Shown piece after piece: positions 18,812 to 61,100 of a stretch of 64,000 bases of DNA. The stretch lies in contig CAJINV010000002.1 of assembly GCA_905178155.1 (NCBI GenBank), positions 8,637,224-8,701,223 of the forward strand, in the 5' to 3' direction. This stretch comes from Amoebophrya sp. A120. Lineage: Eukaryota > Protista > Dinoflagellata. Both the position numbers and the translations under genes were made by a program. Each line of letters opens with the position of its first letter. The first letter of the stretch is position 1. Below the pieces are notes generated by a model. That model made no database searches. It was not told where the DNA came from and was given only the letters and a program-made list of their open reading frames with translations.

Positions 18812-19249
18812 TCCAGGCTCCGCGCCCTCGTTTTCCGCTTTCTCGTCGTGGTCTAGTTTGCTTGTGCTTAGACTAGGCGTGACCTGCTAGCTTTCGTTCT
18901 TGCACCTTGTACGCTCGTGGCAGTGGAAGAGAAGATGTGAACCCGTCCAAAGAAGATGTTGAGAGCCAGAGCCCGCCACAAGAAGATGAAACTCTGCCGG
19001 CGCTGTGGAGAGGGAAATCGCCGACAGGGACCATATTTCTGGATGGAATGCGCACACAGACGCACGGGGCGCTGAGGCTCTACCTACTTTCTACTGTAAA
19101 TGGGCACAGCTGACCCGCCACGTACGGGTGTCTAACTATTTTGCTTCGAAACTCCATCGCAAGGAGTCGGGGGAGATACCGACGTGGCGTCAGTGGTGGT
19201 AAATGTGTGTGTGCGATGGGTCTAACAACTACTCTACGGCATAGCTCCC

Positions 19250-19312
19250 CCTGTTCTAGATTTTTCGGATCTCAGGCAACAAGGAAAAGCCTTGAGCCAA
19301 AATGGCTACGGA
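19250..19312 (-). ncRNA. Dinoflagellate spliced-leader (DinoSL) copy, probable SL RNA gene; leader exon 19312-19291, 3' end uncertain
   Basis: Reverse complement of 19291-19312 is TCCGTAGCCATTTTGGCTCAAG, an exact match to the DCCGTAGCCATTTTGGCTCAAG consensus. It is followed by GCTTTTCCTTG, which can pair back across the junction (CAAGG/CCTTG). No ORF follows. Confidence 0.75.
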
Positions 19313-20120: not shown

Positions 20121-20790
20121 TGTTCTTGCGCGTCTCAGATGAGATTTTGACTAATTGCGATAATTCAATAACTCAGATTGGTAAAACTTTATGGGTTTAA
20201 TACTCGTCTTTCTTGCATCAGTTGCGGTGCACACTCGCAGTTGCTGTTCTCCTTCGGCTTGCTGCATCATGATAATAACCTAACTTCCGCTGGTTCGGTT
20301 CTCTCTGGCTCAGTTTCCTCGACAAGGCAGTCTACTTCCGCGTTGGAGAAATCAAACACCTTTTTCTTTGCGGAGTCTCTTCTCGAATAGCGACAAGGTC
20401 GAGGTACCATAAAAATTGTAGTACTTGGTACTGGTAGTTGAGCGAACAAATAAACCCGGTTAGTCATAGTACTTCGGAACAACGGAGGCTCATCTTGTTC
20501 ATGCGCCATTTCAATGCTTTCTTAGCTGTGCAAGTGCGGCGAAGAGTTTCGCTATGAACAAAAAAACAGTGCGGCATGCCGTCTTGTCCACTGAAAAAGC
20601 AAGTCCATCGTCCTGGTGCTATGTTCCGTCGACAAGTACATTGCAAGTTTCCACCTTCGAATCGAAATCGAATCGCGAGCAATTTGAACGGGCGTATCTT
20701 TTCTTTGCGACTCTCTTCCAATCACAGCTAGACATCCTCACTCTACTTTTCTGCCTAGTCCACCCATGTCCTTGTCGCTTATCGGCCATC

Positions 20791-23700
20791 CTACCTTCTG
20801 CTGGAGAGTTCCAGGTATCTAGCTTTGTCTTCCGAACTAGCTTTGTACACACGGGACTCGGACTTCTTGAACTTTTCCAGCAATTTGTTCGTCTTCTTGT
20901 TCGCTGCTAAAGAATTTACTTCCACGTCAAGCACGTCCAAAGGGCGTAGCCAGTGCTGCACCTCCTCCTCGTTCATTTCTTGCAGCGAAAAATCGCTGTC
21001 GTTCTCGATTTCGGAGGAATGCAGGGTACACTCGGTCTCTCCCAGGCTGTCCTGGTCGAGCTGCAGAAGATACAAGTCCTCCGGCGTCTTTCCGTCCTCG
21101 TCGCTGTCCGGCTTTTTCCCAGCGTCACCGCATTGGTCACCCTCCTGTCCTCCATTTGCACCAGAACTTCCTGCTCCATCACCATCTCCAGTGTCGTTCG
21201 AGGTGAACATGGCGATGACTCTCTCCGATTTGTCCTTTCTCTTCTTCCGCGCCTCCTCCAGCTGCGCTTCCCGCTTCCTGCGCTCCTCCTCCTTCTTTTT
21301 CACTTGCTTTTCAAGTTTTTCCAAGCCCGTTTTGAACTTCGGGTAAACGGTTGCCCAGTAGTCGCTGCTGCGATACACGATCGTGTGGTGGTTCTTTTCG
21401 AAGCGCTTTGCTCTTCTCTCCGCCCGTTTCGCGAATCCGTTGTCCTGACGTAAATCGTGGCAGACCTCCCTCCGCACCCGCTCCCAAACGCCTTGCTTTT
21501 TCGTTGATTTCTGCTCTTCTTTCAACTTTTCGGTTTTCTCCGCCAGTGGCAAATGCTTGACGAACTGCTCGTGGTTGTCAAACATGGCCAACTTGCACCG
21601 GACCAACCGCCACCACGCGCGGTTTGCCTGCGCTTTGATCACGGTGCCCTTGTTCAGCCCGTCTTGCTTGTGCGGCTCGGCGGTCGCCGTGGAGATTTGC
21701 GTGTAATCAAGTTTCCCAATCGTCGTGCCCGCGAACACGCTGTGCGCCCACTGCGTCGCGTCGACTTTCACCCGCGGGCGCTGACTGCTGGACTCGACTT
21801 GCCCCCAGTGAGCCACGTTGTCCTTCGTCACCACGCGAACGCGCTGCCCTTTCGTGAAGGGGAGAGGGCGGATGAAGTTGAAGGCTTTTTTCCCGCCAGC
21901 ATCGCCCCTAGCCGCTGCGCCGACGCCGTCCTCCTCCTCTTCGCTCGGCGATGCGGCAAGAACTTCGACGATCACCCGCTTGTTCTTCGTGCTATCCGTA
22001 GCATCAGAATTTGCTGATTTCAGCACCTCCTCCACCCGTCCCTTTACCCAGTCGTCCTCCACCCAGTCGCGGACCTCGACCATCTCGCCGACCTCGTACG
22101 CCACCCGCGTGCGGTGTTTTCGCTTCGTCTTGCTGTTGTCGTCGTCCACGTCCATTTTGTCTTCCTCGTGAAAAAAATCGTCCAGGGCCGCCTCGGTTTT
22201 GCCGCCCTTCAGACACGCCTCCTCGTTGCTATCCTCGTAGTGATCCGAATCCAGCTGCAAAAACGTTGCTGCTTGTGAAGCCACTCCGTCTGCTGCGGTG
22301 GGGATCGAGGGTTGGAGTAGCTTGTTGGAGATGTTATTGGGGTCGTGCTCATTCATTTCCTCCACATCATCCACACCTATTGTTTTGCGGTCTTCTCCTG
22401 CTATCCGCTCGACCAGTGTTTGGTCCTTCTCCCCTTCCGAGCTGTCGAACTCGAACGAGTACTCCAGCTCGGTGTACTCGTTCTCGGTGCTAACGACGGT
22501 CTCCTCCGAGACTAAATGGTCTGTGTAGGACCAGTCGGAATTCGGAAACGCGCCCCGGTAGAAGTGCTGCTGGCGCTTATTGTGCCGTGATACTTCTACA
22601 GCCGCAGTGCTAGTACCGTTCTTGACTTCATCTACCTCCTCGCTTGAGTCGTCCGTCGTCACTAGGACTTTGCCGTGCCTCGCGGTTCCGCCAATAGTAG
22701 CGAAGGCGTTTGTAGGATCCATCAAAGAAGCTGTCGCTAACCCTGTCGCACCTGCACGGCCACTGCCTATCAGGTCTTTGTAGCAATCCGCGGTTGCTTT
22801 CTCAGACCCCTCGTCGAGATTGCCGAGCAAGGTTTCAGCTTTCTTGGGTCCTGGTCGGAGGGCTCCAGAGGACCGCGTTGTTGCACTTTCGCCACTGTTG
22901 TTCGGGAACTGCACTAGGTCCGTCGTGTGCAAGTACTCGTCGGCGCGGGAAGTGAGCGTGAGAGACACGCCGTGTGGCCGCATTTTTCTTGCGTAGGCCG
23001 CGGATGATGAGGAGGAGGATGAATGCCCTGTTAGCTGCTCCGATGGGATAACTCTACTCGCAGTTGCGCCTTCGCTTCTTGTCGCACGAACAACCAGCTG
23101 CGCGGCCTCTTTTCCATATTCGAAGCCAATTTTGCTGCTGAAGCTGGTACTACTGTTTTTCCCGTCTGCCCCTACGCCTGATATGATGCTGCGCTCTTGT
23201 CCCTGGTGCTCGTCCAGTAGTCGTTTGTACAAGCCCTGCACCTGCTCTTTGAACCGCATGTCAGCCCACCCTTTGCCCTCAAACCCGACCGTTCTACTGA
23301 CCGCGTCGACGTGGATGCGCTTTGTCGTGGAGAAATACTTTTGCAGCGATCTCTCCGGGTCTTCGTACAGATCCTCTTTGAGTCTTGACTGCTTTTTCCT
23401 CGCAGGAACAACTCCACTATTTTGGTTTGTTCCCGTCTCGACGTAAAGGCTCCTTTCCGTTCCTGCAACAAGGAGGTCTGCTGAAGACGCTCCTGCTTGG
23501 TTGGCTCGCACCGGGCTCGGACTGTTCAAGATTTTCCGTTTTCCGCTATTTGAGGTCGAGGTTGTTGGCCGCATCTTTGAAGCCGTTGCAGCTCCACCGT
23601 CTGGTACTATTGACGAACCTCCCACGATTGCCGCCGGGAAAAAATCTGCGAAACTCTCCCCAAGTTCATCTTGTTGAACGAAATCAAATTCTCCGTTGGC

Positions 23701-26107
23701 GATCGCGTTTTGGCGGATCTTGTCCAGCACACTGCGTAGTCTCACGGTCGACGGCGCGGTCTTCCGTCGGTACATATCAGCATAGGAGATGTCTCGCGGC
23801 CACGGCGCATAGTTCGGCTTCAGCAGCTCGTCGGAGGATGACTCCCCGCTGCTCGTCGGCGGCGTTCCTGAAGAAGACTCAGCAGGGGCCGCCGCGCTCT
23901 TTTTCTCCAACGCTGTAGTGGCAGTCTTGCTTTTCATTTTTGCTTTGGGTTTAGTTTTCGCGGTAGCGTCATTGTTCTTTTCACCCAGTGCTAGTTCCTT
24001 CTTGGCTTTTGCAGCGGACGCGGCAGTCTCGCCTGCTTTGCGCGGCACACCGTAGAACCCGGTAAATAAACACTTCGCTCCAATCTGCACTGGAAGCAGT
24101 TCCGGCACGACCGCACCAAAGCAATCCCGGGGTTTCTCGCTCTCCTTTTCGGTAGCACCGAGCTTCGGTCGTGCAGGGTCGGCGCCTGTTGGGTTTGTGT
24201 CTTAGTAGGTTTTGCTGTCTACAGGAGGTGTACGAAGATATGTATCGAAAAACAAGCAGAATTGCGTGTCGTACCCATAGTTACTTCCTGCGTGTAAACG
24301 ATACCGACGCAAAATCCTTGATGATTTTGATATAGTACAGCTACCGCTGTAGCAATAGAATGCGATGCATCAAACAAAAAACACGACAAATCTAGATCAG
24401 CATGATCCCACCTTCTTTCACATTCACGTGTTCCGCCATCGTTTCTTGGAAATCGTCTGCGAAGTAAATGTCCGCCAGCGCGGGTAGAAAACAGCAATTC
24501 AAGCAGAATTTTTTCGATCTGTGCAGCTCCCGTATCTCTTTGTTCCGCATCAGCTTCAACTCCCGCTCTGTCGCTCGCCAAGTCGTGTCCTTCAGCCCCG
24601 ACGCAACAGACGCAACGTCGTACATCTTCGTCGCGTACCCAGCCTTTTTTGGTAAGCAATCCTCCCGAATGGCGCAGTGGATCCGCTCTTTGGCGTCGAT
24701 TTTCACCTTTTGGCGGTCCTGCACGAGAAATTGCGGGCCCCGGGCGAGTTGCATGCGCTTTGCCGTGCCGAGGGTCGAGTAGGTATCGGTTCTCTCGGCC
24801 CGCGTCGCGATGCACACCTTCGCTTTTCTCGTATTACAAACCTGCTGGATAAAGTTGATGCGCGCGCCATCTAAATCAGATCTCTGCGTCTCCCAGCGGA
24901 ACACCCGGGCGCCGCGGTCGTAGCGGTCGGCGTAGCGATTGCCGTGCGCGCTGTTGAACTGGACCTTCACTTCTTTCGGGTTCACGAAGAGAATGATGCA
25001 GCTGTTCGACGGGGTCATCGTCTCCCACGTCACGCCAGCCTCCTGCACGCCCAGAATACCGGACCCAAACGCCCCGAAAAAAACCTGGAAATTCTTGTGC
25101 TCCTCGTCTTTGTTTTTCTTCGACGAGGACGAGGCCGCGTGTCTGCCACTGTCCCCAGCTGCTCCGTCGCTATGTTTGAACACGTCGCTCATGACGAACT
25201 CGTATTGATGCCGGTACAGTCGCTGAAACGTATTGCGCTGGTCTTCGTCACAAAAACGCACATTCATGACCGACGCCTGGTCGGCATTCGTGGTGGACGC
25301 CGGGAGATCCTCCTCGAGGTCCAGGTTGATATCTCCGTCGACGTCTTGGTTCTTGTTACTCCTCTTGTTTTTGGTCGATAGCACGAGTGCACTGCTTTTC
25401 TTGTTTTTGAAGTTAGTACCCAAAGAAGTTTCATCTTCGTCCTCCAGGCAGATGACATCGTCGTTGTCATCCAAAACTTCTTCCTGATCCCGCTTATTGC
25501 TGGAGCTTGGGCGCTTGATTATCTTCTTCGGCCTGCTGCTCTTAGCCGGAGCGGGTGGAGAGGAGCCAGTAGCAGGCTCTGGGGCTTTGTTTTTGTTCTT
25601 TTCGTCCGCGATTTCCTCATCGGTATCAGGCAGCAGCTTCTCGTCGTTCAGCTTTAATTTGCCACTACTTGCACCGCCAGCGCCTGCACCCTTCGGGGGC
25701 TTGGATGTTGCGTTTTTGTCACCTTTGATGTCCCGCTCTTTATTCTCTTTCACCGCAGCAGTTTTTGGGGATCTATTGGCTTTGCTCGCTCCCGAAGATT
25801 TGCTTTTCTTATCGTGGTCTTTTTTTGGGCTCGGCTGCCGCTGCGCTTTATCGTTTCTTTCATTGGCAGCTGCACTTTTCTTCTTCACAGAAACCAGCGC
25901 TGTTGATGTTGTATTTTTCTTCTTCACAGCACTCGAGGGTGGCGGCTTCTTGCTTTTCACCGACGCACTATTCTTCCTGACCGGAGCGGGGCTCGGACTC
26001 CCCCGTCTCGCGTTTTTCGCAGCAGGTTTGTGCTTTTTTGCGTCTTTTGGTTTCACCTTCTGCGCAGCGCCTTTTTTCATCTGGATCTTCTTGGGCGGGG
26101 GCGGCAT
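20791..26107 (-). CDS. ~1700-aa putative chromatin-associated protein: Lys/Ala/Pro-rich N-terminus, DUF3427 (SRA/PUA-like) domain, tandem Agenet/Tudor-like repeats, C-terminal coiled coil. Two exons
   Basis: ORF 24392-26185 (ATG at 26107, MPPPPKK) joins ORF 20791-24108 through a phase-1 GT-AG intron. Motifs IILFVN..RYADRY..VFRWETQ..VCIATR..YSTLG and YEVGEMVEVRDWVEDDWVKGRVEEV / FIRPLPFTKGQRVRVV..WGQV. Confidence 0.8.
24186..24411 (-). other. Canonical GT-AG intron (phase 1); acceptor at 24186 (CAG) or 24201 (AAG)
   Basis: GAAG|GTGGGA donor at 24411. Both acceptors are in frame and lie downstream of the in-frame TAA that bounds the second exon, which has no ATG of its own near its start. Confidence 0.65.
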
Positions 26108-27816
26108 CTTTGAAAACGTCAATGTTGTTAGGAACAATCTCCGCGATCGGTATCTATACTTGAGTATCAGGTCAGAAGAGATCAAGATAGGCAGAAAACA
26201 AAGATACGTCCATGATAGAGTCGTGTGGCCGAAGTCTTGAGGCTTTCGAACATTCTATACTTCTACACAAGATGCTCGTCGTGCGATTGTGAAGTAGCGC
26301 CGTAACATAAAAGATGACGCGCATCTTTCGGTCTCAAACATCTTTCTCGAATTCGGATCAATCTACACACAAACCGCTGTGGGTGGTGGTAGATAAAATG
26401 CTGCTCCTCTTGTAAACTGAAATTGAATGTGTCTTCCACTTCTCATCATGGTCAACGACGTGCCGACATCCTCAAATTGCGCAACACGCCTGATGAAGGC
26501 TGTTTACTACTGACTACGTAGACTTTCTGCGTTGCATGATTTTCGCTCATAGGCGGCGTGTGAGATGGCACTTTCTGTTGCTCCTTAACCTTATACTAGA
26601 CTCGTCTTCATCTCACGCATAAAATTTTGAAACACCACGCCACTCCGCTGCGACGAACAAGTTCCCGTACCAAAAAACACACAAACGCGTTGTCCGCCTT
26701 TTATTGCGTGCGGAAGTTGTGCCGACAAGCAACTAGTTATCTTTTTGCATGCATGCTACAACCGCTGTCCTTTTGACAAAATTCAACAAAAAAGAAATAA
26801 TCTCAATTGTGACCACATTCACACAAGCACAGTATTCTCGTAAATCGATCCATGTTGGCGGATGGAAACTTAATGTGCTTTGGCGGCAATTGTTTTTGCA
26901 GCAGCGATTTTCTACATTTGAGCACAAGATAAGGGTTCGTTTATTGCAGGAGTAGAACGGAAGAAGATCATTAAGACAGAGATTCACTTCGTACCAGCCA
27001 TACTAGTCCTAACGTAATTGCTTGCGTGACGAAAAAAAAGTATCTGTATTGACAAGAATGCTTGCATGTAATTGAGATGCATTGTAACGCTTGATGATAG
27101 TTGCTCTTGCTACTTAAAGAGGTATACTTTCTTTTTTAGTCAAGTATATTCGGTTGCCTCTTCTGGACATTCAGGCGCGTAGAGGGTCTAGACCTAGATC
27201 AAAGTTCAAAACGATCGGGCTTTTACATCCATACGACGATCAGAGCGATATTCTCTAGAGTGCACGTGAGGCAGGAAAGTTGTCGAATACAACATACTTG
27301 TAGTACCAGTCGTGATACCAATGTGGATTCAGCGCCTGCAGCACAGCAGGTGCCGCTATGATGATTTAAATCTGTTCGACTCTAAGCCTTAGATTGTCCC
27401 TTATCGACTCCTATTCTTCTACGTCCCTGGAGTCTCATTATAGCTTGAGTAGGTAGTTGTTGGCTTTGGAAAGACGCGGCGGAAGAAGTGCTGTCGTTTT
27501 GTGCTGTTTTTTGGGTGCCTTGCTGCACCCCTTTGGTTATTTGTCGCCAAAGATTCCGGTCGAGACAGTCGCGAACCGTTGCGCGCCTTTTGGTCACGTC
27601 TGCGTGAACTTCATGCAGCCAGGTGCCGCTATATTCTCAATCTCAACAACGCAACGAGAGAAACTAATTATAGCAGGAGCCCAGGCCTATTTTCCAATTT
27701 TTATGTACTTACTTTCCGAAGCTGTCCTTTTCTTTCCGTGTTGCATGCTAATTTTTCAAAAACTGTCCTATGTGTTATAGTACTTATTTCTATTGCATCC
27801 AAAACTGGCAACAGCA

Positions 27817-46141: not shown

Positions 46142-49100
46142 TTATTTTTTCCTGCTCAGCTCCACGTCTTTTTCTACTCTTTTCAGATACGCGGCTGCAA
46201 GTTTCGCGTTTCCCCGGTCGGCGGCTTCTTTGTACCTGCGATACAGCGGATGAGCTCGCAGCTCGTGGTCCTCGTTATCACCTTTTGGCTTTTCCGCTTT
46301 TTGGTGATTCGGCTCCTTCATCATCCCTTTCGAGGCGGCCTCTTTTTCTGTTTGCTTGTTTTCATGATGCTCTCCACGGTGCGGCAACGGTGCGGAATGC
46401 TCAGCGCTATTCTTTTCGTTTCCCGATCGCGCGACAACGTCTTTCTTCACTTTCCGCCCCGGCTGCACTTCGTTGCTCTCAGCTGAAGCTCCGGACGCTC
46501 CTTTTCTGTCCCGCTCAGCTTTGCGCATGTTGGACACCTCTGCCATGAGCGCGGCATTCCGTCCGAGAACCTCTCGCTTGGCATGCGCGTAGTGATTTTT
46601 TATCTCACCCGCATCTCCCTCATCCGCCCTACCACTTTTGCCACCCAAACCCATCGGCTTCAGATGCGGCGCGACGATGTGCTTTCTCGGCGCGGTAATA
46701 ACCTCCACAGCATTGGGGTTCAGCGACCCACGAATGTGGCGGTCCGGACTGATTTCGAACTGCAACCCCGGACTCAGTCTCGCCGTGTCCGCCTTGTGCT
46801 TCAGAATCTCCAGCTTGCGCCACTTCTGTGAGAACAGGGCCCGCAGACTCAGGTCTTTGCGGTCAAGGAATTCCAGTGCCTTATCCAGCTTTTTCTCTTC
46901 AGAATGTGATGGAACGCCGGCAGGTGGGGTTGCTCCGCTTGAATCCGGCCCTGTGTGCTCGTGATGGTCAGTGTGAGAAGTGCTGCCGTGATGCGTCTCA
47001 CTGTGCTGTTCTTTTATTTGATCATGATGACGATGGTGATGATGTCCGTGCTCTTGCAGTGGTCTATGGTGATGCGATTCGTGGCTGTGATGGTGCCCCG
47101 AATGAGACTTGTGTTGGTGATGTCCACTCTTCTGTGGCCTGGTGCGATTCCGAAAACGACCTGGGGGGGAGTTAGAATTTTGCAACTCCCTCGCCACGTC
47201 GTCGATCGCCGGTGGGGTGTTTTCCAATTGGCGAAGCCAGGCGTCCGTCTCCGCATTGTCGACTTCCTCCTGCCTTTCCGCTTCCAAGGCTTTGTTGCTC
47301 GTGAAGTCATCGTCTACATCGAACAAGTGCGGTTTCTGTCTCTCGTAGCGTCGCCACTTTTTTTCTGAATCGGCTAAGGCTGCCAAAATCTCTGTGCCCG
47401 TGGTTAGATTCCGCGGGACGTAGAGCGAGGGAGAGGTAGTGGTTGGTTGATACAGATGCGGGCTCGTTGGTTGTAGGCTCATGACCTGCAAGTTGTGATG
47501 CGGAGATGCAGCCATCATGGAAGCAAGTGCTCCTTCCTCGTCTTCCTCGTGCCGGTAGACTGGGACTAGTGCGTTCTGACTTCTTGTCTGGTTGCGCCGC
47601 CTTTCGCGCTCAATAGCCACCGCAGGATCATCCTCCGCGGACAGCGCCTTTATTCTCTGCTTCTGCGCCGATAATTCGGCACCTCTTGCTTCCATCAGCA
47701 TCTTTTGCAAATGCTTCGGAAAGATCCCTGCACGGCTACCGAACCACAGACTTTGACCGGAAAGGTAGAAATTACTCGGAGCGGTAAAAACTTCTTGCTG
47801 TCCCGCTGCGACAGTGTGGCTCGGTGGAGAGTTGTTCCTTTTGCCTCCAGAAGTCTTCAGTCCTTTACCCGTCGCGCCGCCGGTCAAAAACTCCATTTTG
47901 TCGTGGTCTTTCTGCACCAACGCCAAATGGTGCTGCTGGCTCGCTGCGTCGGCATTTTCGGTTTCGAACTCAAGAACCTCGTCGTGGTTTCCGTGCTCCG
48001 CTTCCAATCCCTCGAGTTTCAAGTGATGATCGTCCGCCACGACGCGCTGAAAGTGGCCCACCATGTCAAACACGACCTGCTTCCGCTTCTCCCCAGCTTT
48101 CATAAAGATGTCATCGAAGTCCTTCACAACAGTCAAACTTTTACTGTTGTGCAGATCCAAGCTGTTCTGCAGAACTTTATTTCCAGCAGTACTCGTTGCC
48201 GCCGCACTTCCACTGGTCCCACCTCCAAGCATCTCTGCAAGAACCAGCAAGACTAACCCGCGAATCACCTCGTCTACGTGGAAAGACTCCCAGAATTGCA
48301 CCGCTTTCCAAAGTTCCGCGAGCTGCGAAATGGAGAGGTTGAGTTGCAGCAGATTCAACAGCAAGAAGTCGCTCATTTTGTCGCACTCGTGCATCAGAAA
48401 ATGCTGGGCCTCAAGCAAATCTTCGAGCTCAATTTCCCGGTTGCGCCTTTCCTTGAGCGACTCCTGCCGCGAGGACCCTGTCTCGGTGTTGCCTGGTTTG
48501 GAGAAGTGAAACATCACACTGAAATGCTCGAGGAAGCTTTCGCGCTGTCTGGTACGCGGAGTGAGATTATCATGATCGATCATTTGTGGGGTCGCGTCAA
48601 CCTCAGCAGCCGCATCCTGTTGTTTGGACGGTGCACGCCGATCGGCAGGAGTGTGATCATGTCGGAGCTCCTGGTCCTCCAACTCGTCGTCATCGACGAT
48701 GTGCTCGTCCCACAGAAACTTTTCTTCTCTTGGGCCAGAAACTTCTTCTTCCTCAATCTCCAGGGAAACAGGCACTGGTTTCGCTTTTGGGGGCTTAGCT
48801 TTCAACGAATTCTCTTTCGCAGCATTATCCACCGCCTTCGTCTTTGCCAGCAAATCGTGAAGTTTTCTTGGTGCAGGTGCAGCCGGCTTCATGCCACTAT
48901 CTTGGTCAATGGTAGCTTCTTTCCGCTTTTGTGTCAGTCTCGCAGCCTTTTCCACCTCCGTGACACCAGCAACTGCTGGAGGCTCCTCAAATCGAATTGT
49001 CTTCTTTTCACCAGCGGGCTTAGCCTCTTCTTTGCCGGCCTTCATCTTAGCGGCCGAGCTGGCACTGCTTGTTTTGGTCGTGGTCCCTGCTGCATTCAGT

Positions 49101-52100
49101 GTTTTTTCTTCGCGATCTGTCGCAGCCTCACCACCGGTGGATTTTTTTTGTTCAACGCCTGCTCCGGAACTCACTCCTGCAACACTCGCAGTTGATGCTC
49201 CTCCTGCCGAACTAGGTCCGGCCGTATTTTCTCCAACCTTATTTCTCCTCCGCCCCAGCCGCGGACCCCTTGTACCAGTACCAGGAGCTGTAATCGGTGG
49301 CTTGTACCGAAATGGAAAAGCCGCCGTCTTCGTCTTAGAAGCTTCTTTTTGCGCCGTAGCAATTGTGGTAGTTGCCTTCGATCCCTGTGCAGCAGCTCCG
49401 GCAGGTGCAAGCGCTTTAGGAGCTCTCGCCGATTTATTCGTCATCGAATCAGCTACTGCAGCACTAACCGACGCAGGAGGTGGAGCGCCCCGCGGGCTAA
49501 TCTTCACTGACGAAACACCCACGACTTTCACGAGTACACCAGGAGTTGTACCGCGGCGTGAAGACGCATCGGACTCCGCAGCTGCCTTCTTCTCCCTCTT
49601 TGTCTTCACGATCTTCGTACTGCTGGTCTGCCCCGGTTCGGTTCCCGCTGCAATGGTGACGCTGAAGGTGGATTGGACGCTGGCAGCGAGCTCGTCCAGG
49701 TCGATACCTAGTTCTTCCTCTTCCTCCTCTTCCTCTTCGACGGTTTCAGGTACAGGCGCAAGACGAGCGGCAGCCTTTGCCTGTGCAACAGAAATAGGAG
49801 GCACAACGGCAGTTTTGATGATACTTGTGGTCTCAGTACCTGGTTTCTCTTGTCTCCTCTGATCACCGAGAGTCGCAGCAGTTGAAGTCCCTGCTTTTTC
49901 CAAAATTTCATCCAAATCCTCACCTGCACCTTCATCATCTTGCGCAGCCTTAGCTTCTTTCTCCCTAGCGGTTCTAGGAGAGGCTGCAAAAATTTCAATC
50001 GCGACAGGTTTCGTCACCGGCGCAACAGCAGTGCCTTCCTCCTTCGCAGATGAAACTAGAGCTAGCACAGGCTGCGTCGATGCAGTCGTCGTTTTAACCT
50101 TGACATCAGCGGCCTTCCCTGTCGCCTGCCCGATCAGAACATCCAAGTCTTCCCCGGGTTCAATGTCAACTGTTTCCGGCTGCCCTTGGTGATCCAAAAT
50201 GCGCACTTCGATCTGCGGAGTCGCACCATCGGCGTCCTCCTCTGCTCCTCGCCGCGGACTTGTGGCCGGCGACGCTATTTCTACTTCAACGATTGCGGGA
50301 TGATCCGGGGCTTGTGCAAAGGTATGCTGTTGACCTCCTTGTTGATCAAAAACACCAGCCTGCTGCCCGGGAGTTGAGGTGGACACCGTCACCTGAATAC
50401 TGGTCGCTGGCACTGCTGCCGCGATTTCGTCCAAATCCTCCCCTGCGTCCTCGACGTCCCCTGTCGCTTTTATTTGTTTATCCCGCGCACTTGCACCAGG
50501 CGACGCAATCTCGATCAAAACCCGGGGAGATGCCAACGCGTCTCCTGTGTCATCTCCCTCGTCAACATCTTTCTCTTTACCTCGGGGAGACACGACTGTT
50601 ACTGTCGTGACTTGCTGTCCAGGTTCGAAATCGTCTCCATCATCTTCCTCTTTCCGTCGAGGAGAAACGACTGTCACGGTGGTGACTTGCTCTCTAGCAT
50701 CGTCATCCTCTCCGCCGTCCTCCTGTCGCGGAGACTGCGAAACGGTGACTTTGACTTCCACACCCGACTCAGTCATCACAGTCGCCCCGGCGGCTTGTTC
50801 CGGTTGTGCAGATATTTCCTGTCTTTGGACAGCAGTCTGACCTTGGTCTGCTGTGTCCTCTGTTTTCACGGTGACTTTTACCACGGCGGAAGTTGGTTCC
50901 TCCTCCGCAGCTTCACGCGGACTGGCTCCTGCACCGCTTCGCGGACTAGCTGCCCCGCTTCGCGGACTGCCCGATGGAGAGGCAATGACGACTTTCACAG
51001 ATCGGGGAGAGGCAACACCTTCTTTTTTGGTTTTCTCATCCTCAGGCTTTTCCTCTCCGCCAGTTGTAAAAGCAAGAGCTGCAAGTGGAACGACGATGGT
51101 TGTGGTTTCATCTGGGCCGACCGATACTGCTTTAGCTTTACCAGCGCCTCCGGGTACCATTTTGCTGACGTCGATCACGGGTGGTGGAGCTGCTGCTCCT
51201 GTACCGGAACGACCACTATCCACTTTCACTTCAACTGTGACCTTTGCGGTAGCTGCATCCTTTCCCGCCGCGTCGATTGTTTCGCTAGCCTCCTCCGCCG
51301 GGGCTTCCATCAGCGCGAGCGGTGGAATGACCGGCTGCTTCGGTTCTTGAGGGTCCGCTGCGTTCGCAGCCGATGCGGAAGGTGGTGCGCCCGCTGCTGG
51401 ACCGACCTGAATGAAAACGGGCTCCGGCTGCTCTGAAGATGGGGCGTCAGAAGATACTGTTCCAGCGGGCTCTGGTTTTTGTCCTTCCTCCTCAACTTTG
51501 ACACTAACCACCACTTCCTCCGGTTTCGTAGCGTCTACAGAAACCTGCACGGAACGAGGGGAAAGTTGCTTTTGTGCGGACCGAGGGGAAGGCGGCTTTT
51601 GGATTTGTGCGCTGGTTGACTCCTCTGTCGTTCCTGCAACAACTTCGATGCCCACTTGAACCGAGCGAGGAGATTGCGGCTTCGCTTTCGCAGTTGCAGT
51701 CGCCTCTATCCCCCCGGTATCGGTAACTTGTACTTTTTCTTTTCCCGCCTCTCGCGGAGACGTTGTTTTAACAGTGACGAAAACTGCAGGCTGCTCCTGT
51801 GCAATTGTGGCATCTTTCGGCGCCGCCCTGGGCGAAACAGCTACTTGCACGATCCCGACCTGCGGCACCGTAGCCAGAGCTGCCGTGCCCGCTTCGGCTT
51901 TTTTTCTATCGACGAGGAGCGACTTGTCGCCCACGTGCACAACGATTGGCACTTTGAAAGGATCATCGTCGTCCATGTTCACTCGGTGCGTGAATCGCGG
52001 TGGCCCCTTTTCTGATTTTGTCGGCATCACTAAAAGGCTCTTCCCGCTGGCCCCACCCTTCAGCGCCGCCTTCCAGTTCGCAGGCAGGTCCCGTGACACG

Positions 52101-55100
52101 TCGATCTCCATCTTTCGCATCGCTTCCGATATGGTCACACCGCTGGAAGAAGTAGGACGTCTCACGAGTACATCAATCGGCCGCTTTTTCGTATCGGCCC
52201 CGTTCGTAATCAGAATCTCGGTGGCGAAATGCGCGTACTTTTCCTTCCCGACGAATTTGTCGTTCACGATGATCAATTTGTCCCCTGTCTTCAGCCCCAT
52301 CGCCGACGCCCAGGAGTTCGGTTTGATCTTTTGGATTTCGTTCACAACCGAACTGTCGGTCCGTAACTCCAGAATCCCGGTCGACTCGCCGTAATTCTCC
52401 ACGTCCGCGTCGGCGTTGATTTGCCCTTGCCAGTACTCATTGTCCGCGATTTTTCCCTTCAAGAACACAAAGGTCGCAATCTTCGGCTTACCCTGTTTAT
52501 GCCGATTGCCGACGAAGTTCAAGATCGCCTCGTTCGGGTCTTCTCCCTTCATTTTCATGACCATCGTGATTCTCTCCCCGCAAACGACCAAAAGCCAGTC
52601 CCCGACCGATAGGCCATATTTCTTCGGTCGCGAATTCGGGTGCCCAGTGTTGATTTTTGTCACTCTCACGATCGGAAAGTCGTCCCAGTTGACTGCAAAT
52701 TGAAAGGCTTCAAAAAACCGATCCTCAATTTTCTTCTTGCTTGTTGCGTCAAACACGCTCGCATCCTCGACGGAGCTCTGCTCCCAGCCGAATAAGCCGA
52801 CGGCCTTCAGATCGGATGCGGCGTACAGGAAACTGGGCAGAAACTGTGGCGGTTTCGCGGACTTCCGCTTCCCGTGTTTCCCGACCGCGAAAGGATCGGC
52901 ATCAGTCGGACGGACAAGCGCAATTTGGGGACCGCTGTCGGGGGAAACCAGGACTTTGTCTTGCTGCTTCACTGGTGGACTGCCTGCCGGATCCGCTGCA
53001 CTAGCACTAGGCTCTTCCGCTTCTTCCTCTTGCACAACAGTCATTATGCCAACCTGCGCGGCACCAGAGTCCTTCTTTATTTCTGGCACGGCAAGCTGCA
53101 CACCACTAGCACCTACTGACGTGGCCCCCGCTTTCGTTTTGTCCACCGCCAGAGACGCGTCTCCAACATGCACTACAGGCACCTTGAACGGATCGTCATC
53201 GTCCATATTCACTCTGTGCGTGAACCTCGGTGGCCCCTTCTCTGACTTCGTCGGTAGCAACAGACTCGCCTTCCCACTCCCGCCACTTTTCAACGCCGCC
53301 TTCCAAGGGGCGGGTAAGTCCCGCGCCACGTCGATCTCCGTTTTCCGCATTTTCGCCGTGATCTTCCCGATCTTCCGCCGCACCAAGAGATCGATCGGCC
53401 GCTTTTTCAAATCCGCGCCGTTCGTGATCAAGATTTCCGTTGCGAAGTGCGCATACTTTTCCTTCGCGACAAATTTGTCGTTGACTATCACCAAGCGGTC
53501 CCCGATCTCCAGGCCCATCGCCTCCGCCCAGGAGTTTTCCTTGATCTTCTGAATTTCGTTCACCACCGTGCTGTCCGTGCGTAACTCCAAGATCCCGGTC
53601 TGCTCGCCAAAATCCTCGACATCCCCGTCCGCGTTGATTTGCCCCTGCCAATACTCGTCGTCCGCGATTTTTCCCTTCAGAAACACGAAACTCGCAATCT
53701 TCGGCTTCTGCTGTTTGTGCCGGTTGCCGACGAAATTCAAGATCGCGTCATTCGGATCTACTCCCTTCATTTTCATGACCATGGTAATTCTCTCCCCGCA
53801 AACCACTAAAAGCCAATCCCCAACCGCCAAGCCGTACTTCGTCGGCCGCGAGCTCGCGGAGTTGTCAACTTTTGTCACCTTCACGATCGGAAAATCGTCC
53901 CAGTTCACGTTGAATTGAAAGGCCTCGAAGAAGCGGTCTTGGGCGGATTTCTTGCTGGTACTACTGCCATCAAACACGCTGGCGTCCTGCACGGAGGTTT
54001 GCTCCCACCCGAACAGTCCGACAGCCTTCAAATCGGAGGAGGCGAAAAGAAAACTGGGGAGAAATTGCGGCGGTTTTGCAGCCTTTCTTTTTCCCGACTT
54101 GCTCACCGCAAAGGGGTCTGCGTCCGTCGGACGGACTAGCGTCACTTTCGGGCCGCTGTCAGGGGTGTAAAGAACTTTGTCCTTCTTTGGTTTCGGGGAT
54201 GCGGTGTGGTCGACGTCATCTTTCCTTCCTTCTTCCACAGTACTCACAGTGAGCGTGAGCGCAGCAGAAGCCGCAGTCTCAGGACCAGCATCCGACGAAA
54301 TTCCGACCTGCGCTGCACTACTTGGAGCTACCTTCAGTTGCACGGAGGGAGCCGAGGCGGCTTTCTCTTTGTCTACCATTAAAGACGAGTCCCCGACGTG
54401 GACAGTTGGGACTTTGAAAGGGTCATCGTCGTCCATATTCACCCGGTGCGTGAATCTCGGTGGCCCTTTCTCCGATTTTGTCGGCAAGAATAGCGTCGCT
54501 TTCCCACTCCCCCCACTCTTCAGCGCTGCTTTCCAAGGCGCGGGTAAATCTCGCGCCACGTCAATTTCGGTCTTTCGCATGGCGGCAGAAATTTTCCCGT
54601 TGTACCGCCGGACGAGCAAGTCAATCGGGCGCTTTTTTGTGTCCTTACCGTTTGTGATCAAAATTTCCGTCGCGAAATGCGCGTATTTCTCCTTCGCGAC
54701 AAATTTGTCGTTCACGATGATCAACTTGTCGCCGACCCGCAGCCCCATGTTTTCTGCCCAGGAATTCGCCTCGATTTTCCGGATCTCGTTGATGCAATTG
54801 TGCCCTTCGTTCCGCAACTCCAAGATCCCAGTGCCCTCCCCGAAGGCCTCGACGTCCGCGTCACCGTTGATTTGCCCTTGCCAGTACTCATTCTCCGCAA
54901 TATCCTTCTTCAAAAACACGAAGCTCGCAATTTTCGATTTCCCCTTGGCCTGCTTGTCACCGACGAAGTTCAGAATTGCGTCGTTCGGGTCCGCTCCTTT
55001 CATCTTCATCACCATGGTCATTCTCTCTCCGCAAACGACGAGAAGCCAGTCCCCAACGTTCAAGCCGTACTTCTTGGGTCGGGAATTCGGGGCTGTTGTG

Positions 55101-58100
55101 TCGACTTTAGTGACTTTCACGATGGGGAACTCGTCCCAGTTCACGTTGAACTGAAACGCTTCGAAAAACCGGTCCTCCGGCTTCTTCTTCGATTTCGGAT
55201 CGAACACGCTCGCATCGTCCACCGGCGTCTGCTCCCAGCCGAACAGCCCGACCGCTTTCAGGTCGGAGGACGCGAAGAGAAAGCTCGGGAGAAACTGGGG
55301 TGGCTTGGCCGCCTTGCGCTTCCCACTTTTCGCAACCGCAAAAGGGTCCGCGTCCGTCGGCCGGACCAGCGTCACCTTGGGACCGGCGTCGGGCGTGTAC
55401 AGAACCTTATCCTTCAGCTGAATCACAGGCGGCGAAAAGGATTCCGCGGCAGCACCCCCCGCCCCTGCGGCTCCCGGAATCGCAAGAGAAACCGGCCCGG
55501 CATTGGTTTTGTCTTTCAGCAACGAAGTATCCCCCACGTGCACGATCGGAATCTTAAACGGATCGTCGTCGTCCATGTTTACTCGGTGCGTGAATCTTGG
55601 CGGCCCCTTTTCACTTTTCGTCGGCAGCGCCAGCATGCTCTTGCCCCCGCCCGGTTTCATGGCGGCCACCCAAGCGGGGGGCAGTTTCCGGGTAACGTCA
55701 ATCTCCATTTTCCGCATTTTCTCCGGGATCTTCCCCCCGACCCGGCGCACCAACAGCTCGATGGGCCGCTTCGAGGCGTCTTTCCCGTTGGTGATCAGAA
55801 CGTCCTGCGCGATGTTCGCGTACTTCTCTTTCGCCACAAACTTGTCGTTCACGATCAGCAACCGGTCTCCCTTCTGCAGGAACATCGCACTCGCCCAGCT
55901 GTTTTTCTCGATCACGTCAATCTCGCTGAAAACGCCAGCAGCGGGGTCGTTTCGGAAGGAAACGAACCCCGTCCCCTCGCCGTAATGTTCCACGTCCTTC
56001 GCACCGTTGATCTGGCCCTGCCAGTATTCATTCTCCGCGAGTTTCCCGTTCAAAAAGACAAACGACCCGATCTTTGATTTCTGTTTCTTGTACTGTCCGC
56101 CGATGTAGGCCAGAATCGCGTCGTGCGGGTCGACGCCCTTCAGCTTGACCACCATGGAGATCCGCTCTCCCACGAAGCAAATAAGCCAATCGCCGACGTC
56201 CACGTTGTATCGCCTCGGGAAGCAGTTCGGGTCTTCGCTGATCTTCTTCACCTTGACCACCGGAAAGTCCGTCCAGTCACAGCAAAAGCCGAACGCAGAC
56301 AGGAACCGGTCCTCCGGCTTGGTGGTTTTGGGGTCTGCCGGCTGGTCGAACACAGTTGGGTCGTTGATGGCACTTGGCGTCAGCTCCCACCCCACCACAC
56401 CGACGGCCTTCAGATCCGAGGTCGAAATCAGCAGCGACGGCAAAAACGGAGGGTCTTTCGCGGCTTTGCGCTTCCCCTTTTCACTGGTAGTGAATAAGTC
56501 GCCGTCGCTGGGCTTCACCAGAAACGTCTTTGGCCCGCTCTCGGGTGTGATCAGAAGTTTTGGCACCGGCGGCGGTGAGGGTGGGGCATCTTCCTCAGCT
56601 GTGGCCCCGCCAGGAGCTTTGCTTTTAGCGGGCGATGGCGTTCCTTTCGCGGTACTAGCCTTAGCTCTTTCCTTCGCCGTCGCAGGAGTCGCTGGTGCGG
56701 CTTTCTTCGCCGCTTTTGCTTTTGGCGCAGCAGCCCCTGCGGCGGCTGCTGGTGGTGGGACCTTGGCTGCGGACTTGCTCTGACTTTTTGCAGCTGCAGG
56801 TGGGGAAATGGTCACAGCTGCTTCTGCTGGTTTTGCCTTCGCCGGCGAGGGCGCAGGTGCTGGTGGTGGGGCTGCAGGCTTTACATCAACAACAGCGGGC
56901 ATAGAAGGAGGTTTCTCTTTTACCTCGACAGTACGCGTCGCCTCTTGCACAGGAGGCGGAGGAGATTTTGCCGCCTCTTTCTCACCTCCTCCATCCCCAC
57001 CTCTGCTGCCCTCTACTCCGCGCAGTGATTGCAGCCAAGCATTCCACTTGCCCGGGAAGTCTCGTTTTGTGTCGACTGCAAACTGCAAACTTGCATCGGC
57101 AAACGCTTCTTCTCTCTTCACCAGAATGTGCAACGGCTGCGCACAGCTTGCGGTTCTCAGTTTATCGTCGATTTTTGCCGGATCCTTCTCGCGCAGCGCG
57201 TCGTGGGCAACTACGATGCGGTCATCCTTGCGCAACCCTATTTGCCCCGCAGTCGACCCCGGCTCCACACGATTTACCACTTTGCCGTTCTCAACTTTCC
57301 AACCAAAGGCCTCCTGGTCAGGCTCCGTCAGTTCCAGCTGCAGATAGAACTTTTCGTATTTTGCCCGTAGAAACAGAAACCCCGCGACCGGGTTGTCTTT
57401 GCGATTGAATTTCCGCTTGATTTTTTCCACGATCGCATCGTCCGGGTTTTCCCCGCCGTTCTCCTGCTCTGCCGCGTTTTGCAGCACTGTGATCCGCTCC
57501 GTCAACGTTCCCACCATCAGCATGATATCGTCCACCTTCACGTTGTTTTTCACCGTGCGCGCCTCCGGGTCCGCGTCATTGACCTTCGAGACACGGACCA
57601 CCGGGTAGTCCCTCCAATTCAACTCCATGCCGAAGAGCTTCCAGATTTTTTCTTTTGGCGTCAGGGAACTATCCGTCAGGCAATCGCCGTCGATACTGCT
57701 CTGCCGCCAGCCGGTTAGCCCGTAGGACTTCAAATCCTTGCAGAGTCCGAGCAACTGTTGCAGGTACGGAGGTGGCGAGGCATTATTTGCTGTGTTTTTT
57801 CTGTTCTGCCCCCGTGCGATGATGCCAGTCAGTGTCGCCGTGCCCAGCGAGCCCGCACCGTGTTGCTCCCGCGCCTCCGCAGCAGCGACAGACAACCCCG
57901 TCAACGACTGGGAGCCCGTGCGTCCTACCGCTTCACTCTTCCCGGCCGCCGTTCCCAATTCGAGCGAGCCCGGCATCGTGGTGGTGCCCGCTGACGGAAC
58001 ACTCCCGCTGCCGTCGACCTTGGTCAGTGACTGGGTTCCATCATTTCCGAACGGCGACGGCCGCGAGACGTCGACCTCTTCGGCGAACGTCAGATCCGTG

Positions 58101-61100
58101 TGATTCCCCGACTCCCGCTTCACGAGAATGTGAAGTTTGAAATTGTCGTTTTGCCGGCTCTCCAAAAACTTCTGCACCAACTTCTGGATCTCCGCGGCGT
58201 TTTTTTCGCGAATGAACGACTCGTTAGTCTCGAAATCGTGCGCCACCACGATGCGGTCTTCCTTCTGCAAACCGAATCTATTCGCCGCCAGGCCGCCCGG
58301 ATCGATACTGACAATTTTCGCCGCTTCCGTCTCCATTTTTAGCACGTCGGCACCCGTAGAGCTGGCATCAGAAATCAGTTTAGCGCCGCAGAGTTCCAGC
58401 TGACAGTACCGCTTCTCGTACTTGGCGCGCAGAAACGCAAACCCCGCCACCGGGTTGTCCTTCCGGGCCGCGCGACTTTGCACCTTCTTCAGAATCACCT
58501 CTTCGAACGACTTACAGTGTCTGTAGTCCGGCGCGGTGACCCAGGACCCGATCGATGTGACGCGGTCCTTCAGCGTGACACAGGCAATCATTACATCGTT
58601 GACGCACACGTTGTTCTTCGCCGCGCGCGACGGCTGCCCGTCCCCAGTCTCGCGGTCGACCTGGAGGACACGCACTACCGGGTAGTGACTCCAATCTAGC
58701 TCGATCGCGAACAGCTTGCGGAATTTCTCCTTGGGGTCAAGACTCGCATCGCTCAACAGCTCTTTGTCGATGCTCGACTGCGCCCAGCCGGTGACGCCGG
58801 CGCTTGAAAGGTCCTTGAAGAACGAGAGCAGCTGCTTCAAATACGGCGTGGCGGAGGAGCTGGCTCCTGGCGGGGCGAAGAGGAAAACTGATGAAGAAGA
58901 AGGGTTCTTGCGGTGGATCTTAAAAGTTGTAGGAGGGTCGTCATGTGATGTGGAACCTTGATTGTCTTTCTCTTTGTCGTCCGGAATACAGAGCGTCGTT
59001 GATGCCCTTGGCTCCACACTAGCGACTAGTTCGTCCAGGTCGACCCCACGATGAAGGTCCGCGAAAACAATTTCGTCCATCCGCGGTACCGAGCAGTTAG
59101 ACATCAGGGGAAGTAGAGCGGCATTTCCATCGAACTCGTCATGAACTTCTTCCCTCGCAGCCTCGAGTTCCGCTAGAAAGTCGTCCCCGCCTCCGGATAA
59201 CAGTTCTTCGGAGTCAACAACTTCTTCTGCCTCACTTGTGTGGCCGAAAAAGGCGTCCTGATCCTCCTCCAGGTCGTCGGCCGAGCTCGACGTTGTATTT
59301 GCTAGTACGTCAGGACCGATAAAACTTGGACTACTACTGGTACTGCTTCGCGTGTCGTGGCTCCTAGCACTACTTCCCTCATCATCGCTTATGATCCCGT
59401 GATCATCTTGCTCTGGATAAAACAGCAAAGGACCGCCCGCTGCTCGCCCACTAGCGCCGTCAAGGGGGACCTGTTGATCGCTTGCACTTGCAGCAGCCAC
59501 CCGGCCACCAAACTGCGCCCAACCTTTTCTGTTCTTTTTTCCAGCCTCGTCCGCTTTTGCTGCTTCTGGCAGATATTGGTAGTTACCACGGGGATCATCC
59601 ATGATCTCGTGTTGCTCCACTACTCCCCCACCCTGCTTGCTTTTCCTTTCGTCTTCCAGCAACATCAGTTCGATCTCGTCCTCTAGCTCCTGTTCGAGCA
59701 GTTCGTGTTCCTTCCGCACCTCCGTCATTTCCTCCGCCTTCATAGCAAAGTATCCTGTGCAAAGTATCGCACTCGTAGTAATTGCAGTCATGCACTACAA
59801 ATCTCGTTCCCAAGGCAAATCAGCACGGCAAATTGCATTTGCCATGCTGAGGAAATTTGTAATCCAACTCATACTATTACGATGCAGCTTTTGCAGTTCA
59901 TACAAAGTTTTTCGCTACGATTTTGGTCAACCCCGCAAAGCTCCCCCGCATGGCGGCCGCGTGCTCCTTCACCTCGCGGCTCGCTTCCGCGTTCTGCACC
60001 GCGCGGTGGTGCAAGACCGTTGTCAGACCGTGGAACTGCTCCCGCATCGCCTGCTTGTGCTTCGCCTCGTTTTCCACCCGCAGCTGCTCCTGCCGCTTCC
60101 GCTCCTCCTCCGCCGCCCGCGTGTGCAGGCTCACCTTGTGCGCCAGGATGGTCGCCAGCCCCTTGGACAGCGTTTTGGTGCCCGTGGACGGCAAAGTCGC
60201 CTGGCGCACCTTGTGCGCCATGATTTTCGCCAGAATGTTCAGCGACTTCGTGCCCGTCGAGGGCTTAGTGCGCGTTTTCACCTTGTGCGCCAGTATGGTG
60301 GCAATGCCCGTCCAGTCGTTCGAGGCTGTGGAGAGATGCTTATGTAACTCGTCGTCCTCCTCCGTGATGTGGTGTAAGTGTTTCAAGTAAAAATGGAACT
60401 CCGCGGGCCCTAACTCGAAGAAAGCGTTGAAGAAGTGCCGCACGTCCTTTGCAAGGGTGTGCCGCAACTCGTTCGGACGAGTTTTTGATGAAGTAGTAGA
60501 TCCTGCGCCGTCAACGGTGGAGGACTTGTTTTCTTCTTCATCCAGCAGGAGGAGTCCCGCGAGCTTCTTCTCCAGATCGGCATGAAAGTCGCCCAGACGT
60601 TCCACAGCGACCTGCAGGGGCACATCCTGCAGACGAATCGCCGAAGACGACGAGCCTGCTTTACCAGGCGGCCCCGGAGCACTTGTTCCTACGGCTGCTC
60701 TTCTTGCATGCGGCCAACCTTTTGGGCTCGGGGAATAGGACTCTGGAAAGAACAAAACGCCACCAGAAGTGATGCGATCGGATAGTTCAGACTCTTCGGC
60801 GGGTCGTAGTTGCAACGCGTTGGAACTACGTGATATTCCGAGAGCGGACGGAGATATAATTCGGTGCTCATCGAAATCGCCGACGTTATTTTCCGGCAGG
60901 GACGATAGGAACATTGACTCGTCAGGAGAGTGTGAGTGTCCTCCGGGCGAGCGCTTCAAGTAGGTCGTGGTATCTGGGCGATTGGCCGCCGCCTCCTGCT
61001 TCAGCCGGTTTATTTTCCGTACTGGCGTCGCGTAGGCCGTCGAACTGGGAGCAACACCTGGAGTGGTTTGTTCTCTCGAATTCCGTCTTCTCGGCGGCGA

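Follow-up and report, generated by a model that had tools for sequence, protein, structure and literature searches.

The recognition domain of SauUSI lies at its C-terminus and corresponds to its DUF3427 part (PMC6765204), and it has an SRA fold, in which the flipped base is modelled among Tyr831, Phe841, Ile842 and Trp868 while Asp858 reads the base (PMC7913695). A carboxylate in the pocket is what makes SRA domains favour modified cytosine over thymine (PMC6212794). The DUF3427 literature that we found is, by title, all prokaryote-centred, and our literature search, judged by title, found no named reader of the 5-methylcytosine (5mC) or 5-hydroxymethyluracil (5hmU) of dinoflagellates. Writers for both of these bases in dinoflagellates have been described. 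Core dinoflagellates carry 7.6-13.2% 5mC, and 5hmU replaces 22-45% of thymidine in three of them (PMC11572971). Here we describe a gene within 64,000 nucleotides (nt) of Amoebophrya sp. A120 DNA (contig CAJINV010000002.1, positions 8,637,224 to 8,701,223; hereafter the window), which encodes a protein of 1,696 residues with no recognised catalytic domain. Residues of about 290-563 are predicted to adopt a base-flipping SRA fold remotely related to DUF3427, and we consider it an evenly balanced proposition that the protein acts on chromatin, with this domain flipping modified cytosine, either 5mC or 5-hydroxymethylcytosine (5hmC), from duplex DNA.

The locus is one real spliced gene of two exons, on the minus strand at 26107-20791. 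Its two open reading frames (ORFs), 24392-26254 and 20791-24201, had been proposed in the original prediction to be linked by a phase-1 intron, and our results confirm this. Removal of a 226-nt GT-AG intron (24186..24411) leaves an exon 1 coding part of 1,696 nt (24412..26107; residues 1-565 plus one base, phase 1), covered by transcript-like contigs, and an exon 2 coding part running to the stop codon (20791..24185; residues 566-1696), which together form an open frame of 1,696 residues. The exon-exon joint is present in contigs of all four transcript-like runs (X1-X4), and both exons lie on one contig of 5.5-5.6 kb in X2, X3 and X4, showing one transcript and not two separate ones; these runs come from one study and two samples, and their RNA status is the tool's guess, none being recorded as RNA. 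The joint is absent from both DNA-like runs (X5 and X6), in which single contigs of 8.1 and 7.7 kb read through the intron. The transcript-like contigs end close to the gene limits (20490-26359). Two raw RNA runs with the same species label (X8 and X9) covered 1 of 30 bins and left the gene itself uncovered, and they are uninformative either way. In length and junction peptide the spliced frame equals the public model CAD7935351.1 / GSA120T00010458001, which is recorded for Amoebophrya sp. A120 as an unnamed product.

The SRA-like domain (residues 290-563; 24419..25240, minus strand) was delimited by modelling, structure searches, profile comparisons and conservation. The model of its 274 residues is confident (predicted local distance difference test score, pLDDT, 85; predicted template modelling score, pTM, 0.82) and displays a thumb-like G348-S-G-I loop together with a predicted pocket of F374, Y392, D394 and W405. 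When this model was aligned exhaustively to 48,161 chains, SRA-domain proteins occupied ranks 1-10 and 15 of the 17 top matches. The best was the DUF3427 recognition domain of SauUSI (residues 809-953; Z 8.0, root-mean-square deviation (rmsd) 3.0, 109 aligned), and a second comparison gave SauUSI a Z of 8.2 (range over both, rmsd 3.0-3.2 and 109-119 aligned); SUVH5, at Z 7.5, is tied with SauUSI, and the top non-SRA chain reached Z 5.9. MspJI, LpnPI, SUVH5/6, AspBHI and SauUSI are also among the weak Foldseek rows. A search of viral structures returned nothing at E<=0.001, although a ScoMcrA-like SRA entry stood fourth (E 0.11), and an ESM Atlas search with the domain gave no usable match. Short-chain dehydrogenases, the sole matches (E 0.058 or worse) when PDB sequences were searched with the family profile, were rejected as chance. 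The original prediction had called for such a model and structure search, and its proposal of a DUF3427 (SRA-like) domain holds as to the predicted fold and as to DUF3427 being the closer of the two profiles compared below, though not as to a Pfam DUF3427 match. The peptides that it quoted are indeed encoded on the minus strand within 24750-25060 (IILFVN starting at 24997, RYADRY at 24937, VFRWETQ at 24904, VCIATR at 24817 and YSTLG at 24781), but the true span is larger (about 25240-24419) and holds a His/Cys insert that it had missed.

Profile comparisons place the domain nearer to DUF3427 than to the canonical SRA family. Neither PF11907 (DUF3427; gathering cut-off 27.7 bits), sought in the window ORFs at E<=1 and in 26 hit proteins at E<=0.05, nor Pfam SAD_SRA (PF02182), sought in the window ORFs and hit proteins, gave a match. 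The reference sets were nine DUF3427 and ten SAD_SRA domains from viral contigs, all Pfam-confirmed; a first pattern scan for DUF3427 had yielded six chance matches and a second yielded 16, one by chance, with nine of the other 15 used. By hhalign, the family profile matched the DUF3427 set at 82-83% (score 42-45, 67-68 columns), rising to 90% over 99 columns after removal of the His/Cys insert and a short N-terminal loop, with controls at 16.3 (reversed), 23.9 (best of 60 column shuffles) and 20.3 (best of 40 block shuffles). Masking the search motif of the DUF3427 set left a score of 29.9 (23%), still above the shuffles. The match to the SAD_SRA set was 0.2% (score 13.8). The core motifs Y-x-D...F-x-W-x-[ST]-Q and LFVR...Y-x-x-LG align in register, LFVR being IATR or VAVR here. 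Because the profile matches DUF3427 at 82-90% as against 0.2% for SAD_SRA, the domain is best described, from these alignments, as a remote DUF3427 relative that fails Pfam membership. A bacterial origin of the domain is a reasonable inference from this relationship, and horizontal acquisition is plausible. E. coli K-12 has no PF11907, and word-based searches, which are weak for such distant homology, found no relatives in metagenome contigs, GTDB genomes or phages; two plasmid matches from such a search, at E 4-5, were rejected. Viral and prophage contigs (L008-L023, L027-L036) carry both DUF3427 and SAD_SRA genes, and mobile DNA is therefore a possible route for such domains.

The domain defines a family that earlier annotation had missed and whose named members so far all come from dinoflagellates. 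When 1.84 billion representatives were searched by phmmer with the central domain, 26 matched at E<=0.001, of which 24, including the query itself, are real; the other two (P0020 and P0023) are bacterial Ig-repeat proteins and were dropped. Six further members from a profile search and seven from cluster look-ups bring the set to 37 rows, near-duplicates and fragments included, and three later cluster members stand outside it. Members with a named source come from Amoebophrya A120, AT5.2 and A25, from Polykrikos kofoidii and, by way of a cluster-mate, from Alexandrium monilatum, and since only these are named, the label "dinoflagellate family" rests on five names; a few members are MMETSP transcripts. 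The two long Amoebophrya proteins aside, members of full length have 339-549 residues, consisting of the domain and low-complexity tails, and over the domain none scores above a Pfam cut-off. SUMO-consensus-like motifs number 96 across the 37 proteins against 21.6 in shuffles (one in the A120 protein against 2.9), an excess that fits nuclear proteins. A [KR][RK]-x-x-x-K[QT] motif, for example KRLRGKQ, directly follows the domain in 17 of the 37 proteins (P0008, P0011, P0027 and others) and is absent from the Amoebophrya proteins. One 501-residue metagenome protein (P0004) groups with Amoebophrya (100/100), its similarity ending shortly ahead of the His/Cys insert, at what is probably an intron.

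The positions of the predicted pocket are conserved. Among the rows covering each site, W405, Q408 and D411 are each found in 36 of 36, Tyr or Phe at 392 likewise in 36 of 36, F374 in 34 of 35, and G348 and G350 in 31 of 31, while position 394 is acidic (Asp or Glu) in 23 of 36, the other 13 having Pro, Ser or Ala. By a register drawn from the profile alignment and the Asp-Trp spacing, F374, D394 and W405 would correspond to pocket residues of SauUSI, and Y392 may form a second aromatic wall, by analogy with Tyr55 in TagI. An insert of about 85 residues in the last beta-hairpin (24485..24736, minus strand) carries H477 (34 of 35 rows), C484 (35 of 35) and C535, C538 and C539 (33 of 33 each), a conservation that suggests a putative zinc site.

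On the mechanism that we propose, the Tyr/Asp/Trp pocket of the SRA-fold domain would receive a 5mC or 5hmC that the domain flips out of the duplex, the His/Cys insert would likely be a structural element that binds zinc, the basic N-terminus would contribute a general affinity for DNA, and a pair of Tudor-like barrels without an aromatic cage, with the charged helical tail, might recruit partners or bind nucleic acid. Modified cytosine is the likeliest ligand in Amoebophrya because the cytosine-selecting Asp is retained, D394 being present in all three strains. Several results weigh against this reading. No Pfam family matches the SRA-like domain, and any one PADLOC or NCBIfam family matched at most 1 of 25 members. 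Foldseek with the domain model gave no match at E<=0.001, and a Z near 8 is middling by the tool's own scale, at which a common arrangement is possible and SauUSI and SUVH5 are tied; the fold call carries weight because the top structural rows are uniformly SRA, not through Z alone. The DUF3427 set is small and motif-selected, and the query partly shares that motif. The pocket residues were placed by alignment and spacing rather than by superposition, and since 13 of 36 rows have no acidic residue at 394, such a residue is not essential to the family. The main gap, however, is that we see no sign of DNA methylation in Amoebophrya itself: CpG observed/expected in the window is 1.08, with no depletion, our literature search found no paper linking Amoebophrya with DNMT, Amoebophrya is unnamed in the searched parts of PMC11572971, PMC11071213, PMC6723414, PMC5890265 and bioRxiv 10.1101/2021.06.11.447926, and the methylation parts of PMC11453091 have nothing on it.

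The same lack of CpG loss would suit a general nucleic-acid adaptor that retains the SRA fold while binding unmodified or single-stranded DNA, RNA, or a base other than modified cytosine or 5hmU, a reading that we regard as unlikely. Folds of the PUA superfamily bind a range of modified nucleic acids, RNA among them (PMC4738411), and the acidic residue varies across the family. Against such an adaptor, YTH, EVE and PUA-type chains reach Z <=4.1 as compared with 6-8 for DNA-binding SRA domains, and the pocket aromatics are invariant in residue class.

A second module is encoded towards the C-terminus, where the original prediction had proposed two Tudor/Agenet-like repeats. The two barrels do start at 22098 and 21858 and are predicted, with weak support, to be Tudor-like, but the protein has no Pfam Agenet match. 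Barrel 1 (residues 1262-1341, with two long disordered loops; 21859..22098, minus strand) matches Pfam TTD weakly (E=0.0019, 18.5 bits against a cut-off of 29.1) and the TDRD3 Tudor at Z 8.1 on a low-confidence, two-sequence model of pLDDT 53, with Tudor, PWWP and KOW barrels all tied. It is closed by an IRP-x-P stretch that presumably resembles an Agenet motif. Barrel 2 (about residues 1342-1398; 21688..21858, minus strand) was predicted from Foldseek, conservation with AT5.2 and an SH3_1 match (E=0.0009, below the cut-off). Tandem Tudor, Agenet and KOW pairs occur in the Foldseek list, none at E<=0.001. A120 and AT5.2 share a conserved sequence at residues 1262-1398, with 46% over the part that aligns; the Tudor region has no relative among proteins of 30-931 residues, the pair was seen only in Amoebophrya, and its fusion with the SRA-like domain is seen in 2 of the 37 family rows.

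This architecture led the original prediction to a convergent UHRF1-like protein, coupling a modified base read by the SRA domain to methylated histone tails read by the tandem Tudor. The architecture stands: both modules are on one spliced transcript and in the AT5.2 orthologue, the best sequence matches of barrel 1, although weak, are the tandem Tudor domains of UHRF1 and UHRF2 (E 0.4-0.55), and Tudor/Agenet clusters are among the language-model neighbours (0.80-0.84), which is no more than a lead. The histone-reading part is not supported. In the alignment to UHRF1/UHRF2, the Phe after the shared Trp, which we take to be the cage residue F152, faces V1279 in A120 and Arg in AT5.2. The third strand of barrel 1 ends in VEVLAAS (A120) or VKLLDSV (AT5.2), with no aromatic, and by strand register the later cage positions would also be non-aromatic. 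In UHRF1 the aromatic cage is F152/Y188/Y191 (PMC4615792). Furthermore, the Amoebophrya H3 variants of one transcriptome are without K9 and the H4 variants without K20 (PMC4751559). Because of these substitutions and the missing target lysines, it is unlikely that the barrels read methylated histones, and with no PHD, RING or UBL found by Pfam and a Tudor model of pLDDT 53, we consider the coupling improbable.

The position that varies in the family, 394, is the one said to decide between cytosine and thymine. In a tree of 27 rows, with four fragments and six near-duplicates left out, one clade (96/98) contains nine Asp losses and one Asp, while all 11 rows of its sister clade (97/95) are acidic; one further loss lies elsewhere. 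The tree needs three changes at 394 as compared with 8.4 with shuffled labels, and this is unchanged after dropping that column, a pattern that we read as clustering only, because kin share labels. The Asp-less clade includes Polykrikos kofoidii and a 90% cluster-mate of the Alexandrium monilatum protein. The residue right after the Trp is Glu in 9 of its 10 rows and Ser in the sister clade, so that the acid may have moved in this clade; the Amoebophrya proteins carry both Asp394 and the Glu after the Trp. The Asp-less clade is a testable candidate for 5hmU readers. That the Amoebophrya protein itself reads 5hmU or another thymine derivative would be in keeping with the abundance of 5hmU in the three core dinoflagellates and with a family so far named from dinoflagellates only. 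We nevertheless hold it to be quite improbable, as the retained D394 should disfavour thymine-type bases, and no Amoebophrya measurement of 5hmU was found in the parts of the literature searched. Finally, that the likeness to SRA/DUF3427 is a common beta arrangement in an unrelated zinc-binding fold is very improbable, even with 6-14% identity to solved SRA domains, Z <=8.2 and 109-146 of 274 residues aligned, as two different methods, one comparing structures and the other profiles, agree on SauUSI/DUF3427 and the motif-masked profile signal persists above shuffles.

We speculate, in a scenario that is rather doubtful as a whole, that a DUF3427-type domain was taken from bacterial modification-dependent restriction and a zinc module added, after which paralogues would have split into Asp-keepers (Amoebophrya and the 11-row clade) reading modified cytosine and an Asp-less clade switched to 5hmU. 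If true, eukaryotic chromatin would here have recruited yet another defence module from bacteria, and the Asp-less clade would be a reader of an abundant dinoflagellate base. The wider family with its natural Asp-loss clade is a more valuable result than the A120 gene alone: a domain of about 250 residues, invisible to Pfam, varies naturally at the specificity residue, and these variants offer a direct experiment on how nucleosome-poor dinoflagellate genomes interpret base modifications.

The remaining regions of the protein are known from composition, charge and conservation. The N-terminus (residues 1-205, net charge +37; 25493..26107, minus strand) is basic and of low complexity. It was originally described as histone-H1-like, and the first 200 residues are indeed rich in K/A/P/S, but there is no histone H1 Pfam match and the likeness is one of composition only, from which non-specific DNA binding or nuclear targeting is likely. 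An acidic-aromatic segment (about residues 1108-1145; 22450..22560, minus strand), conserved with AT5.2 inside a divergent, otherwise unalignable linker, might act as a DNA mimic within the protein or as a docking site. Beyond the barrels, a basic, charged and, from the model, likely helical segment (about residues 1410-1560; 21200..21650, minus strand) precedes an acidic tail. Elsewhere in the window, the neighbours give no functional clue, because only one of the seven other long ORFs has Pfam matches (PDZ-type and a short MazE-type repeat). A 4,550-residue ORF at 46142-59794 (minus strand) has repeated weak PDZ-type matches, with a whole-protein E of 9e-16 and no single stretch passing. Between 232 and 63253, every ORF of >600 residues is on the minus strand, and several, of 3,000-4,500 residues, are intronless and for the most part match no Pfam family. 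A short repeated element at 27359-27500, with one copy in the window, reaches a depth of up to 2,400 in transcript-like contigs and is the sole part matched by the raw RNA reads of X8 and X9; it has no Rfam match and begins with TGATGA, which we take to be C-box-like. Repeated DNA in several variant copies lies at 19000-19310, with a depth of up to about 800 in DNA-like runs against 25-43 for single-copy sequence.

In comparison with known systems, the Amoebophrya protein resembles UHRF1 (UBL-TTD-PHD-SRA-RING) in carrying a tandem Tudor-like pair on the same chain as an SRA-fold domain, with barrel 1 weakly resembling TTD-N, but the order is opposite, the SRA-like domain standing about 700 residues before the barrels and belonging to a different SRA lineage, and Pfam finds no UBL, PHD or RING, nor is there an aromatic cage. 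Tandem beta-barrels are likewise found among the Foldseek matches in Agenet/tandem Tudor readers (AGDP1/AGDP3) and KOW/SH3-like tandems (KIN17, Spt5), from which the present barrels differ in having no cage aromatics and no Pfam Agenet match, with Tudor, KOW and PWWP tied. With the SAD_SRA readers (PF02182; UHRF1, SUVH4/5/6/9, TagI) the domain shares the predicted fold (Z 5.7-7.5) and, as predicted from alignment, the aromatic-Asp-aromatic pocket pattern; however, it has W-x-[ST]-Q where that set has YTG-x-GG, there is no profile similarity (0.2%), and no SET or RING domain was detected in the protein. Compared with SauUSI (PDB 7CLG) and the DUF3427-PD-(D/E)XK enzymes, no nuclease or helicase was detected, the gene is eukaryotic and spliced, with low-complexity tails, and the domain lies below Pfam detection, has one extra residue between Asp and Trp, and carries the His/Cys insert in place of the short turn that the last hairpin of DUF3427 has. 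Nevertheless, it is with SauUSI/DUF3427 that the domain has both its best structural match and its profile match (82-90%), together with the common motifs Y-x-D...F-x-W-x-[ST]-Q and a hydrophobic strand ending in R, followed by LG.

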